A DNA stretch of 57,683 nucleotides, from positions 1 to 57,683 of the IMG/VR virus record IMGVR_UViG_3300045283_000159, one strand, 5' to 3'. The first letter of the stretch is position 1, and the number at the start of each line of letters is the position of its first letter. A program made the position numbers and the translations under genes. Below, in pieces: positions 2,503 through 20,402 of this stretch. Source of the DNA: a virus. Lineage: Duplodnaviria; Caudoviricetes. Under the pieces are notes generated by a model. The model ran no database searches. It was not told the origin of the DNA and saw only the letters and a program-made list of their open reading frames with translations.

Positions 2503-3111
2503 ATGCCAGCTAACCGGAGACGGTCCGCGGCGACCGCGCCATACGACAGGTGGGAGCTGCTCGGCAGGCTCCTGGAGACCCGCCGCCGGGTTCTCGGTCA
2601 CACCTGGCGGACCACGTTCGAGCGTGACCGTGGCGTCAACACGCGGCTCGCCGCCGAGATCGAGAAGGCAGCCAAGGACCGGGTCAACCACTTCATGCCC
2701 GGGACGCTGCAGCTGGTCGCTGAGGGGTACCAGGTAACGTACGAGTCGGTGCTTGCCCTGCTGCGCGGCGAGAGGGACGACCTGGTCCCGGCCGCGCCCG
2801 CCGCGCCCGCGCCCGTCGTGCCCCTCTTCCCCGACGAGCCGCCGGGGTGGCTGGCGGACGAGCCGGGGAGGTCCGCGGCGAACCGCCCCTACATGGAACG
2901 GATCCGGGGCCGCCTGGACGTGCTCCGCCTCCAGGGCGTCACCGCCCCGTCGGGCGCGCAGCTGTTCGGCGAGGGCACCCCCGACGCGCGGGAGTGGGAT
3001 AAGTATTCCGCCGACTGGGAGACCCGCGACGTGGTGTGGTTCGTCGCGGACCTCCAGCGCCGCGCCGCCGCCCGCGAGGCCGGCCCGGAGGAGAACTCCC
3101 ACGGCGCGTAA
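2503..3111 (+). CDS. Putative immunity repressor (N-terminal XRE-like HTH)
   Basis: Divergent from cro; WELLGRLLETRRRVLG...LAAEIEKA resembles actinophage repressor N-termini. Confidence 0.7.
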   Translation: MPANRRRSAATAPYDRWELLGRLLETRRRVLGHTWRTTFERDRGVNTRLAAEIEKAAKDRVNHFMPGTLQLVAEGYQVTYESVLALLRGERDDLVPAAPAAPAPVVPLFPDEPPGWLADEPGRSAANRPYMERIRGRLDVLRLQGVTAPSGAQLFGEGTPDAREWDKYSADWETRDVVWFVADLQRRAAAREAGPEENSHGA

Positions 3112-3305
3112 CATCGCAGGCCCGGGGCTTATGTCGCGTTTGCCCGTGACGCCCGTCATGGTTATCGTCTACATTCCGTGTAACACTTGCGCACCCGCGT
3201 GCGCTTCGCGTATGACGAACCTTTGAGGATTGCCGCAAAGTGAGACGCCCGTCGCGGAGCGGAGCGGCCCGGGACCCCCGGGCGGGCCTGGCATGGGAGG
3301 GGCAG

Positions 3306-10521: not shown

Positions 10522-10696
10522 CGAGGGTCCGCGATTGCGCGTGGTGGGTGCAGGTCCACTACGGATGCCGTGGGAGCGGAAGCGGCAAGCTAAATCGTAC
10601 GACGAGGCCAAAGCCATACTCAGGGCCGCTGACGGCTTCCGGGACGGGTTCGGCGTCGGGACCGCCCGGGAGACCACGGAGGAAAACGATGACTGA
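10467..10696 (+). repeat. 55-bp perfect direct repeat (10467-10521 and 10642-10696)
   Basis: GGACGGGTTCGGCGTCGGGACCGCCCGGGAGACCACGGAGGAAAACGATGACTGA twice. Confidence 0.95.
10514..10696 (+). CDS. Hypothetical protein sharing its C-terminus with the upstream gene
   Basis: Both genes end in DGFGVGTARETTEENDD. Confidence 0.6.
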   Translation: MTDEGPRLRVVGAGPLRMPWERKRQAKSYDEAKAILRAADGFRDGFGVGTARETTEENDD

Positions 10697-10973
10697 GACC
10701 GAATCACCGTGCGACTTCCACTGCGGCTACGTCAGCAGCGGCAGGGACCTCTGGGAGCACATCGCCTGGGAGCATCAGGACTGCGGCGAGTGCGGGAACA
10801 GTCCCCGCCACGATGAAGCCGGCAATGAGGCCGTCACTCACAAGCCGGACTGCCCGCGCCTCCAGCCCGGATATGCCTACCCGTCGGCCGGCAGCGGCTA
10901 CACGCGATACGACGGGCCGCTTGAGGGTGATGACGACCCGTACGTCAACGACGTCATCGGCGACCTCACATGA
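10689..10973 (+). CDS. Zn-finger-like small protein
   Basis: CDFHC...HIAWEH, CGEC, HKPDC. Confidence 0.65.
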   Translation: MTETESPCDFHCGYVSSGRDLWEHIAWEHQDCGECGNSPRHDEAGNEAVTHKPDCPRLQPGYAYPSAGSGYTRYDGPLEGDDDPYVNDVIGDLT

Positions 10974-11063
10974 CCCGCCAGCCGCCCCTGTAATCCGCGC
11001 AACCCGGTCGGACGTCTGTAAGGTTGACCACACCTAACTGACGACACCGGGAGACGGCTCCAC

Positions 11064-11354
11064 TTGACATCCTCCATCGGCCCGAAGGCCGAGGATTCCC
11101 GCGAGCAGCTGACGGTTGCCCAGCATAACAGCAGGGCCGCCACCGCTTGGCTATCGCGGTTGTGGCGGCCCTGCTCACGTTGGCATCTTCCGCGGAAGGT
11201 GTCAGCTGCTCACGGAGGTTCGCGGTTCACGGCCCGGCCTTACTGCGCCGAAGGGCTCCCCGCGCTGCCACCGCATGCCCTGCGGCGGGTCCTGTGGACT
11301 CGCCCACTCTACCGCGCCGTGCTAGGGCGGGGTTTCCGCACGGAAGGAATCCTG
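11064..11354 (-). mobile_element. Non-autonomous IS200/IS605 derivative (PATE-like) with TnpB omegaRNA-like scaffold and no protein
   Basis: Minus strand ends GGGAATCCTCGGCCTTCGGGCCGATGGAGGATGTCAA (right end with GAAT and TCAA); LE-like hairpin GAAACCCCGCCCTAGCACGGCGCGG; internal GGAG...GTAAG...TGAA...GAACC motifs. Confidence 0.75.
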
Positions 11355-12170
11355 ATGTACAGACGCTTTATCGCACTGGCCGCCGCAATGGCCCTGGCCG
11401 TCCTCGGCGTCACCGCCTGGATGGCCGGAGGCGCGGCCGCGACCACGCTCACCTGTACCCACTCCGCCGGGGCGACCACCGTGCCGATCGGCTGCGGCGG
11501 CCTCCAGTCCGTCCTCGCCACCCACGGCACCCTCGACATGGCCGTCATCGGCACCGCCAGCGCCAACGGGAACTACTTCAACAGCCCCGTAGGCGTGAAG
11601 ACCGACACCCAGACCACCACCCCCGGGCAGCGCGAGGACTTCACCGTGTTCGCGGTCGGCGGCAGCATCACCGGCGGCCTCGGCGGCCTCGGCCAGTACG
11701 TCGCCATGTACACCCCGAACGGCCACGTCCCCGGCTTCCCCGCCGGCCAGCCGGCGGCTAACACGTCGTTCATGCCGAACAGCCAGGACTTCTGCCTGTC
11801 CGTGACGCAGCTCCCGAACGGCCCCCACGGCGCGCTCCGCTGGAACGCCGTCCTGCGGAACTGCAACACGAACGGCACGTTCCACATGGGCGACAACGCG
11901 GGCGTGGAGAACTCGGTGACCTCGAGCCACGCGAACCGGTGGCAGGTGTGGGCCCCCGCGACCGGCGCGGCCGGCCTGGAGATGGTCAACGTCAGCCTGC
12001 ATAACCACTTCAACGTGCCGTACGTCCTGGACATCAAGGGCTCCGGCGGTGACGGGTCGAGGCTGCTGGCGTTCCCCACGCACAACGCCGCGAACGAGGA
12101 GTGGACGCTGATCGGGTGCACGCACCCGGCTGACGAGATCAACGGCGGCTCGTACGCGGCCTGCCCGTAG
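11355..12170 (+). CDS. Secreted protein with ricin-B/beta-trefoil-like C-terminus
   Basis: Signal peptide MYRRFIALAAAMALAVLG...AAA; VLDIKG...NAANEEW and RWQVW motifs. Confidence 0.7.
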   Translation: MYRRFIALAAAMALAVLGVTAWMAGGAAATTLTCTHSAGATTVPIGCGGLQSVLATHGTLDMAVIGTASANGNYFNSPVGVKTDTQTTTPGQREDFTVFAVGGSITGGLGGLGQYVAMYTPNGHVPGFPAGQPAANTSFMPNSQDFCLSVTQLPNGPHGALRWNAVLRNCNTNGTFHMGDNAGVENSVTSSHANRWQVWAPATGAAGLEMVNVSLHNHFNVPYVLDIKGSGGDGSRLLAFPTHNAANEEWTLIGCTHPADEINGGSYAACP

Positions 12171-13992: not shown

Positions 13993-14238
13993 ATGGTTGA
14001 AGGGTGGACCATAGCCGAGGCGCGGGAGCAGTTCGCGCAGGCGGGCGTCCCGTTCGACGGCCTCGCCCGGGTCATCCAGGTGCTGCCCGGCTTCCAGCGC
14101 ACCGGCGAGAAGAAGAAGCCGCCCGGCAGCAAAGGCGGCCGCGGCGAGCTCGTGTACGACATCGGCGACCTGCAACAGCTTCACGCTGTCCTCGCGCGAT
14201 GGCTCGTCCCGCAGGTGACGACACCGGGAGACACGTGA
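13993..14238 (+). CDS. MerR/excisionase-like HTH protein, putative late regulator
   Basis: WTIAEA...GRGELVYDIGDL. Confidence 0.6.
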   Translation: MVEGWTIAEAREQFAQAGVPFDGLARVIQVLPGFQRTGEKKKPPGSKGGRGELVYDIGDLQQLHAVLARWLVPQVTTPGDT

Positions 14239-14276: not shown

Positions 14277-14435
14277 GTGCCTAGGAGCAGTATGCCCGCA
14301 CCCCCCGAGGGCAAGCTCTCCATCCGCTAGCCCGCGAGCTTCCAATCCTCTCGCGGGTGCCAGCAGCGGCTATTGCGGGCCCGGCGCCCAACTCCTTCCC
14401 GGACGCCGGGCCTGTCGCTTACCCGGAGGGACACC

Positions 14436-19724: not shown

Positions 19725-20402
19725 ATGCGACTCGGAGAGTACGGCAGGATCGAACGCGATATCTCAGCCGCCGAGAACGGCACCATCTGGCACCGCTGGC
19801 GTTACGGCCGACGGCTGATGTGCGACACGGATATCACCACGCCGAACGGGAATTTCAGGCATGGCGTCATCGAGAAGATCGTGCGCGCAAGTGGCGGGAA
19901 GCTCACGGAACGTGAGCTTCGCGCTCGTCGCCAGTGCGGAAAGGCGTACCCAAACCGGTCTCAAATCCGTCAGGCTCTGACGGATTTCGAGACCTGGAAT
20001 CAGCTCCTGGACGCCAGTTTTCCGCCGTACGAGGGCGAGGAAGACGAGCTTCCGTACAACCCGCTGCTGACGGAAGAACTCATCAAACAGCACGAGACGG
20101 GTGCGGGTCACATCGCTGAGGACAGCCAGTACGAGGGCGGCGGCATCATGCCGCGCGACGACTGCGAAGAGCACGGCGAAGAGCCCAGCGAGGGCGCGCT
20201 CATCCCGCGTAACACTTACCCGGACACCACTCCGCTGAGCGAACTTGTGCGATGGGCGGAACAGGAAAGAGAGCTAGCGCGCCGCTTCAATGCCCGCGTG
20301 GACAGGCTGTGCCACTACATCGACAGTCTCGTAAAGGCCGCAAACGGCGACCTTAACATGACGCTCGGTGAGGCTGAGAAGCGGCTGCACGGTCGTGACT
20401 GA
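19725..20402 (+). CDS. Hypothetical protein, moron-like insert
   Basis: Lower GC than flanks; structured leader. Confidence 0.75.
   Translation: MRLGEYGRIERDISAAENGTIWHRWRYGRRLMCDTDITTPNGNFRHGVIEKIVRASGGKLTERELRARRQCGKAYPNRSQIRQALTDFETWNQLLDASFPPYEGEEDELPYNPLLTEELIKQHETGAGHIAEDSQYEGGGIMPRDDCEEHGEEPSEGALIPRNTYPDTTPLSELVRWAEQERELARRFNARVDRLCHYIDSLVKAANGDLNMTLGEAEKRLHGRD

Follow-up and report, generated by a model that had tools for sequence, protein, structure and literature searches.

A gene-less IS200/IS605-type element with an omegaRNA-like scaffold in front of the start codon of an actinobacterial phage gene

A stretch of 291 nt (11064–11354, minus strand) in the genome of a soil actinobacterial phage is very probably a PATE-type derivative of a tnpB-only IS200/IS605 element, and it has been inserted precisely in the interval that separates the start codon of a phage gene from its ribosome-binding site, its limits being given both by the boundaries of its family and by empty alleles. 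The explanation that we favour as a whole, with a probability of roughly 0.65, is that this derivative of an actinomycete tnpB-only element amounts to an omegaRNA gene without a nuclease. An orphan omegaRNA mini-element had been proposed at this position in a preliminary description of the DNA; that observation is real and is confirmed here in nearly every detail, and its interpretation is supported, a covariance-model match, empty-site alleles and related insertion sequence ends having all been found.

According to this explanation, a non-autonomous deletion derivative would have kept the start of the left end, a −10-like box, the last approximately 25 codons of tnpB, the scaffold and the right end, and a Y1 TnpA of the host would have integrated it, in single-stranded form, into phage or prophage DNA. 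The downstream gene should stay translatable. RNA starting from the TAGAGT box would read into the flank and thereby acquire a guide beginning with GTGGAGCCGTCTCCCG, with which a matching host TnpB could be directed to cut the element-free allele, where TCAT stands beside a guide match. Cutting of the element-free allele is the usual mechanism by which transposons of this kind are retained and home. We put the odds that the RNA is still made and usable by a host TnpB slightly short of even.

The locus provides a clean natural case for the behaviour of guide-RNA-only transposon remnants in phages. Filled alleles, a matching TCAT empty allele and two kinds of non-matching alleles are all present in soil data, which makes cutting by TnpB in trans, homing and escape through the TAM testable. 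The analysis also brings quantitative support for the notion that start codons are occupied by this family at a frequency beyond what a 4-nt target would account for, the left end replacing the ribosome-binding site, and that an additional RNA domain is conserved in gene-less copies but missing from the full-length relatives examined. Gene-less omegaRNA elements (PATEs) and the ATGA target are already published, and the known picture of IS200/IS605 elements is unchanged.

The phage gene and the family of the element

The DNA analysed is a single IMG/VR virus record of 57,683 bases, hereafter referred to as the window in its full length, with approximately 70% G+C and a completeness estimated at 81%. 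Pfam domains of a portal protein, a prohead protease, a capsid protein and a tyrosine integrase were detected in it, indicating that the window is a temperate tailed phage or a prophage. Compared with the capsid proteins of Gordonia, Mycobacterium and Rhodococcus phages, that of the window displays only 30–38% identity, which is too low for the host to be named.

The gene downstream of the element (11355–12170, plus strand) starts with an ATG at 11355–11357 and codes for a protein of 271 aa, which is hydrophobic at its N-terminus and matches nothing in Pfam; homologues of this N-terminus are present in related contigs. In empty alleles, the original ribosome-binding site GGGAGA (11049–11054, plus strand) lies 8–10 nt before the ATG, and in the filled allele of the window it is now 300 nt away from it. 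This site also falls within a 17-nt exact direct repeat, TGACGACACCGGGAGAC, found at 11039–11055 and 14216–14232, the second copy being intergenic (before position 14300); the repeat may be a regulatory or leader motif shared within the phage.

No second copy of the element was found elsewhere in the window. The lack of tnpA and tnpB, already remarked upon in the preliminary description, also holds at the level of protein profiles: PF07282 and PF01797 had no match in the window, a record estimated to be 81% complete, and PF01385 gave one sub-threshold match (11.7 bits, 20250–20339).

Relatives were retrieved with a 20-mer probe taken from a 22-nt stretch common to the window and a Thermobispora plasmid. 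This 20-mer is present at 64 genome loci, mostly from Nonomuraea, Actinomadura, Streptosporangium and uncultured actinomycete assemblies, which split into 11 chance matches in unrelated genes, 26 loci with a TnpB-like frame, 26 gene-less loci and an ambiguous one (L020). At the TnpB-like loci, the 20-mer encodes TAAGHAVAA in a C-terminal tail (...CxxC...NADVNAAxNI...), with at least 370 open codons upstream in 19 out of 26, and the right end, GGAGGAnGTCAA, follows approximately 130–150 nt after the 20-mer. Indeed, OrfB_IS605, Cas12f1-like_TNB and HTH_OrfB_IS605 domains were recognized by Pfam in the open reading frames of two such loci (L019 and L100), which identifies the product as TnpB; in the full-length elements, the interval from the left end to where tnpB begins contains no tnpA. 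Related insertion sequence ends therefore exist both with and without tnpB.

The gene-less loci comprise 12 ‘long’ copies, aligned with the window element over nearly the full length of the latter at 74–79% identity, and 14 copies of a shorter type; the closest copy is thus only 79% identical. Four genomes with long copies hold between three and 14 matches each, including full-length tnpB and derivatives of approximately 115 nt, and a Y1 transposase (Y1_Tnp) exceeds the Pfam cut-off in three of these four. In these four genomes, no capsid protein was found with the query used. The 20-mer was also retrieved in eight other viral contigs, of which three carry tnpB and five carry long gene-less copies.

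Some copies display particular arrangements. The Thermobispora bispora plasmid NZ_CP039125.1 (L014) harbours a gene-less copy of approximately 140 nt (3001–3139) located 184 nt upstream of tnpB and directed away from this annotated gene (1600–2817), which has its own right end. In genome G002, two derivatives of approximately 115 nt (L102 and L105) consist of the start of the left end joined directly to the hairpin GAGAGCCAA, with the right end after it; lacking hairpin 1 of the scaffold (see below), they are probably dead guide genes.

According to the passages of Meers et al. (2023, PMC10055086) that deal with them, PATE elements ‘often encode omegaRNAs’, which have to be used in trans by TnpB encoded elsewhere. 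Like the PATEs of Geobacillus stearothermophilus described in these passages, the window element has no protein gene and has ends in common with tnpB-bearing elements. Provision of an omegaRNA for TnpB in trans and mobilization by TnpA in trans would be further likenesses. It differs from the PATEs described there in belonging to an actinomycete clade, in being phage-borne, and in having a truncated left hairpin and an extra domain of 105 nt.

Ends, target and start codons

On the minus strand, from 11354 to 11064, the element reads CAGGATTCC...GCGGAAACCCCGCC...TAGAGT...structured middle...GGGAATCC-hairpin-GGAGGATGTCAA. Alignments of the family end at NCAT| on the left and at ...GTCAA| on the right, similarity being lost beyond both points, and the flanks in the window are ...GTACAT| on the left and |GTGGAG... 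on the right, without a repeat. The element thus has neither terminal inverted repeats nor a target-site duplication, as is characteristic of IS200/IS605, and this rules out a MITE with terminal inverted repeats; the sole 8-nt inverted repeat (11092–11099 and 11346–11353) is not terminal at both ends. Ancestral DNA lost in the relatives was likewise ruled out, since the family of this 291-nt element is found with the same ends at dozens of unrelated loci.

The right-end module (11064–11103, minus strand) reads, from 11103 to 11064, GGGAATCC, a hairpin and GGAGGATGTCAA, with GAAT at 11095–11098, the hairpin at 11073–11095 and a terminal TCAA at 11064–11067. It had been described as a typical IS605 right end, and comparison with plasmids bears this out: the right end of approximately 37 nt lies directly after or over the tnpB stop codon in the three plasmid matches that were opened, out of 53 records matched, and the module is 84–92% identical to the DNA following the tnpB stop in plasmids of Aeromonas, Acaryochloris and Thermobispora. 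Structural work on the TnpA of IS608 established a pairing between guide and cleavage-site sequences, in which the right-end GAAT pairs with TCAA. In the family of the window element, GAAT occurs together with the terminal TCAA, a right-end combination identical to that of IS608; the left target, however, is TCAT or TCAC and not TTAC, and the pairing is deduced here from covariation only.

The left end is preserved in part. What remains of it (11312–11354, minus strand) includes GAAA at 11333–11336 and, of the left-end hairpin, nothing beyond its 5′ arm. In relatives, GCGGAAA is followed by an intact hairpin, CCCCGCC-GTTCAG-GGCGGGG, resembling that of the right end (CGCCGTTCAGGGCG versus CGCCCTTCAGGGCG, for the left and right hairpins, respectively). 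Relative to all 10 long relatives that were aligned, the left end of the window is 21 nt short, loop and 3′ arm of the hairpin being missing; as single-stranded DNA, it folds no better than shuffled sequences (z = +0.58), whereas a relative (L072) forms a hairpin of 7 bp. A substitute hairpin, ACCCCGCC/GGCGCGGT, with seven out of eight pairs, can be drawn but is absent from the predicted fold. Of the left-end hairpin preceded by GAAA that had been proposed, the GAAA is present; of the two subterminal hairpins of the family, the window has the right one, and the left one in truncated form.

From GAAA and the pairing rules of IS608, the preliminary description had predicted a TCAT target. TCAT is indeed the left flank of 24 out of 26 gene-less relatives, and guide and target covary at the left end, GAAA or GAGA occurring with TCAT, and GAGG or GATG occurring with TCAC in full-length elements. 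The latter have the same left-end architecture as gene-less copies. Across the family, the final base of the target changes in step with the base that precedes the foot of the left hairpin. A tetranucleotide target is thus found at the family level. In the window, the left end adjoins ACAT, as had been noted, which fits TCAT at three out of four positions; on the plus strand, this is the ATGT at 11355–11358, which contains the start codon and occupies the position of both the transposon target and the TnpB TAM.

The loss of 21 nt of the hairpin and the ACAT flank render further transposition of the window copy doubtful, and have probably put an end to it. These two features are also what would be expected of an inert fossil, that is to say an element that transposed once into a prophage, lost its left-end hairpin and persisted as neutral DNA, its RNA either not being made or finding no TnpB to use it, and only its accidental ribosome-binding site mattering, by keeping the gene alive. 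The window, with neither tnpA nor tnpB, is compatible with such a history, and so is the 79% identity of the nearest copy, which implies that the insertion is not demonstrably recent. We nevertheless consider this account unlikely, on the basis of the scaffold described below.

The family lands after TCAT, which is ATGA on the other strand, and this is usually a start codon. For 21 of the 26 relatives without genes, the target's CAT corresponds to an ATG (in one case GTG) on the opposite strand, opening a reading frame of at least 80 codons with a GC3 of at least 0.8. Among 19 such junction frames submitted to Pfam, 18 have a domain starting near residue 1, including ArgJ, PadR, DUF899, ETF, ScpB and amino-acid kinase domains. 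With a stricter classifier, from which four copies were dropped as their right-end pattern was not matched, 16 of 22 insertion sites were start-like versus 18 of 264 other TCAT sites from the same loci (Fisher p = 2e-12), and versus 18 of 71 when only non-coding or start TCAT sites were considered (p = 1e-4); these statistics are rough, as they come from a crude home-made gene caller and from copies that are related by descent and not independent. The five other viral copies (L113 and L115–L118) all abut the ATG or GTG of an opposite-strand open reading frame.

Read as its reverse complement, the left end of the window element supplies a Shine-Dalgarno-like GGAAGGA (11342–11348, plus strand) located 6 nt before the ATG at 11355, so that the new ribosome-binding motif pointed out earlier for the same ATG is indeed borne by the element. 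A GGAGG, GGGAG or AAGGA motif lies 6–9 nt before the junction ATG in the window, in L038, in L065 and in nine relatives of type A; such a left-end motif is absent in type B and in most copies of the short type. Our literature search retrieved no paper in which elements of this kind are described as being placed at start codons and supplying a ribosome-binding site, although one may exist.

The N|ATGA target itself was published for the tnpB-only IS605B and ISC elements (Kapitonov et al. 2016, PMC4810608), which, as characterized in the corresponding sections of that article, share with the window family the same 4-nt target (TCAT = ATGA), the lack of target duplication, subterminal hairpins and the lack of a transposase of their own. 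The IS605B and ISC elements of these sections are cyanobacterial and proteobacterial, and start codons and ribosome-binding motifs are unmentioned there.

A separate observation concerns one of the viral copies (L113, approximately 1960–2235). The same 9 nt, AGTTCCTCC, stand at the start of this element and just past its right end, and their reverse complement, GGAGGAACT, corresponds to a ribosome-binding site with its spacer. It looks as if the native ribosome-binding site had been duplicated, which is unexpected for an IS200/IS605 insertion.

The scaffold and its strand

A covariance-model search was among the checks proposed in the preliminary description. We built a model (R1) for which the 3′ regions of tnpB-bearing elements, 27 in number, were the sole source, and it yielded one strong match in the window, at 11064–11288 on the minus strand (82.7 bits, E = 3e-18), aligned from position 1 to position 138 of 138. 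The sequences of the model were recruited by the 20-mer that they have in common with the window, so that its first 21 positions match by construction; the rest do not. By this homology to 27 elements, the region, like an omegaRNA scaffold, spans what corresponds to the 3′ end of tnpB and to the right end, and a guide would be drawn from the flank. Its RNA fold has a z-score of −4.3 (−4.34 for the minus and −4.39 for the plus strand), and this value together with the E-value of the model indicates that the observation is more than chance.

At the Rfam gathering score, no match was obtained in the window, nor at any of six related loci, true 3′ ends of tnpB from this clade among them, which indicates that Rfam has no family for this clade. 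Ranking by E-value likewise brought up only sub-threshold matches in the window. The Rfam family HgcC (RF00062) is linked to the 3′ ends of archaeal IS605 orfB. It gave a weak full-length alignment at 11051–11176 on the minus strand (15.1 bits, E = 0.67), and has the 3′ motif hairpin-GGAGGAnGUCA in common with the window region; however, Rfam sets the gathering score of HgcC at 50, and by that standard a region with 15.1 bits falls outside the family.

The scaffold begins with hairpin 1 (11268–11288, minus strand), a remnant of the codons for TAAGHAVAA of the TnpB C-terminal tail, as the 20-mer is in frame with tnpB at 26 loci. Covariation was assessed on an alignment (A1) of 19 long gene-less copies, namely the window element, 13 genomic copies and five viral ones. 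The consensus fold has 50 pairs, of which 26 exhibit compensatory changes. Paired cells amount to 95.7% versus 82.8% in shuffled alignments, and the 26 pairs with double changes compare with 16.2 ± 1.7 in shuffles, none of 500 reaching 26, and with 5–9 in slid controls. The covariation of the secondary structure thus exceeds both types of control.

Both strands fold alike, and a strand call by folding energy was dropped for that reason. The assignment to the minus strand comes instead from invariant G-U pairs, present in 19 out of 19 copies (columns 3/19 and 74/238 of the alignment), which fit that strand only. The scaffold helices are intact and covary across the gene-less relatives.

This bears on the suggestion that the element acts in cis, either by forming, on the plus strand, a folded 5′ leader or through an antisense transcript controlling the downstream gene. 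The position in the leader and the supply of a ribosome-binding motif would suit such a role, and the plus strand folds as strongly (z = −4.39). On that strand, however, the invariant G-U pairs become C-A mismatches; moreover, the element precedes many unrelated genes, and related phages express the gene without it. We regard regulation in cis as very improbable.

Returning to the omegaRNA reading, the scaffold of the window departs from model R1 by an insertion of 105 nt (11104–11208, minus strand) in the loop of the closing helix, which forms a small hairpin and a long hairpin with the loop GATAGCCAA. All 19 long gene-less copies have kept this expansion domain, whose helices 5, 7 and 8 exhibit compensatory changes, and it is absent from all full-length tnpB elements examined. 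Since it is missing there, the TnpB of these elements might not accept the window RNA. The loop of the domain, GA(T/G)AGCCAA, resembles the codons for RESQA, which in tnpB lie upstream of those for TAAGHAVAA; their order would thus be permuted in the gene-less copies.

The TAGAGT that had been proposed as a −10-like box is present at 11306–11311 on the minus strand (read from 11311 to 11306). A TANNNT starts 19–26 nt upstream of hairpin 1 in 15 of the 19 long copies, in eleven spellings, of which the TAGAGT of the window is one; the background expectation is 0.033 per interval of that size. A scan of 10600–11800 for the consensus of a sigma-70 promoter and of an intrinsic terminator detected none. 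Sequencing runs listed with the stretch include none recorded as RNA. The lack of a full promoter or terminator consensus would suit DNA that had become inert after insertion. Against such a neutral remnant, no helix of the scaffold is disrupted and the alignment to the model runs from end to end, the TANNNT box has been kept, and the interior helices covary in gene-less copies, which argues that RNAs of this class are under selection.

Empty alleles and the predicted guide

Removal of 11064–11354 had been predicted to restore an uninterrupted site. When the corresponding junction, GGGAGACGGCTCCAC|ATG, was searched in metagenome contigs, 12 matches were listed, of which 11 are homologous phage loci. 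These 11 contigs read CCGGGAGACGGCTCCAC|ATG, with the exact junction and without a scar; the twelfth match listed (L131) is a chance match and not an empty allele. Together with those from viral and soil-run contigs described below, these sequences amount to a presence/absence polymorphism with a scarless empty site. Contigs with the filled allele are identical in three runs (X1, X2 and X3).

Empty alleles of another type, ctccATG, lack 2 nt more and occur in two related viral contigs (L008 and L009) as well as in soil-run contigs. The two viral contigs read gacaccgggagacagctccATGcgcagacgc at the position of the element, where they have 293 nt less than the window. Contigs from other soil runs join position 11062 to 11360, with TGCG in between, or 11062 to 11370. 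In viral contigs, the exact right-end 28-mer, the left-end junction 24-mer and the predicted empty junction had no match. In named phages, a blastn search with the element returned only chance matches of 27 nt, from Ralstonia phages.

The predicted guide, GTGGAGCCGTCTCCCGGTGT, comprises the 20 nt beyond the right end (11044–11063, minus strand) as set by the right boundary of the family, and is unique in the window. Among the alleles of the target gene, TCAT stands at the target in one empty contig (L136), GCAT in the ten other empty-allele contigs listed, and ACAT in the window. The TCAT allele adds to its target a perfect match of 33 nt to the 3′ flank of the element, from which the guide is predicted, so that a natural empty allele matching the predicted guide exists; in the ten GCAT contigs, the match to the guide flank is 19 nt long.

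Such an allele invites a further proposal, in which the immobilized guide-only element would be kept by the phage and the host TnpB would cut co-infecting or resident relatives free of the element, resulting in the exclusion of these relatives or in the copying of the element into them by recombination. In addition to the TCAT allele with its perfect 33-nt match, filled and empty alleles are present in the same soil runs. The canonical left-end motif GTTC[AC][GC]GG is found in none of the six phage-borne long copies (window, L113, L115, L116, L117 and L118), which are few and partly related, versus all 15 genomic long copies. Furthermore, in-frame insertion or deletion of codons makes the TAM-determining base differ from allele to allele. 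Yet GCAT stands in 10 of the 11 in-register empty alleles listed, those of the other type are shifted out of register by 2 nt, and the ‘viral’ contigs may include host DNA. We judge the proposal improbable. If it were true, the element would be an RNA-only selfish or weapon gene without a nuclease, making use of the host's own TnpB, and the indels at the TAM base in related phages would be traces of escape. The split in the hairpin motif and the indels fit a conflict between element and phage; they are also compatible with chance, the numbers being small.

Codon 2 of the target gene is by itself a hot spot for in-frame indels. When the window (11355–11366) was compared with L136, L126–L135, L137, L008 and L009, the gene was seen to begin with ATG-AGA, ATG-TAC-AGA, ATG-CAT-AGA or ATG-CGC-AGA, and it is the insertion of no codon, TAC, CAT or CGC that changes the TAM base to give TCAT, ACAT or GCAT. 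Finally, one metagenome contig (L137) has a tandem duplication of approximately 61 nt encompassing the leader, the ribosome-binding site and the first codons, and therefore displays two empty junctions.
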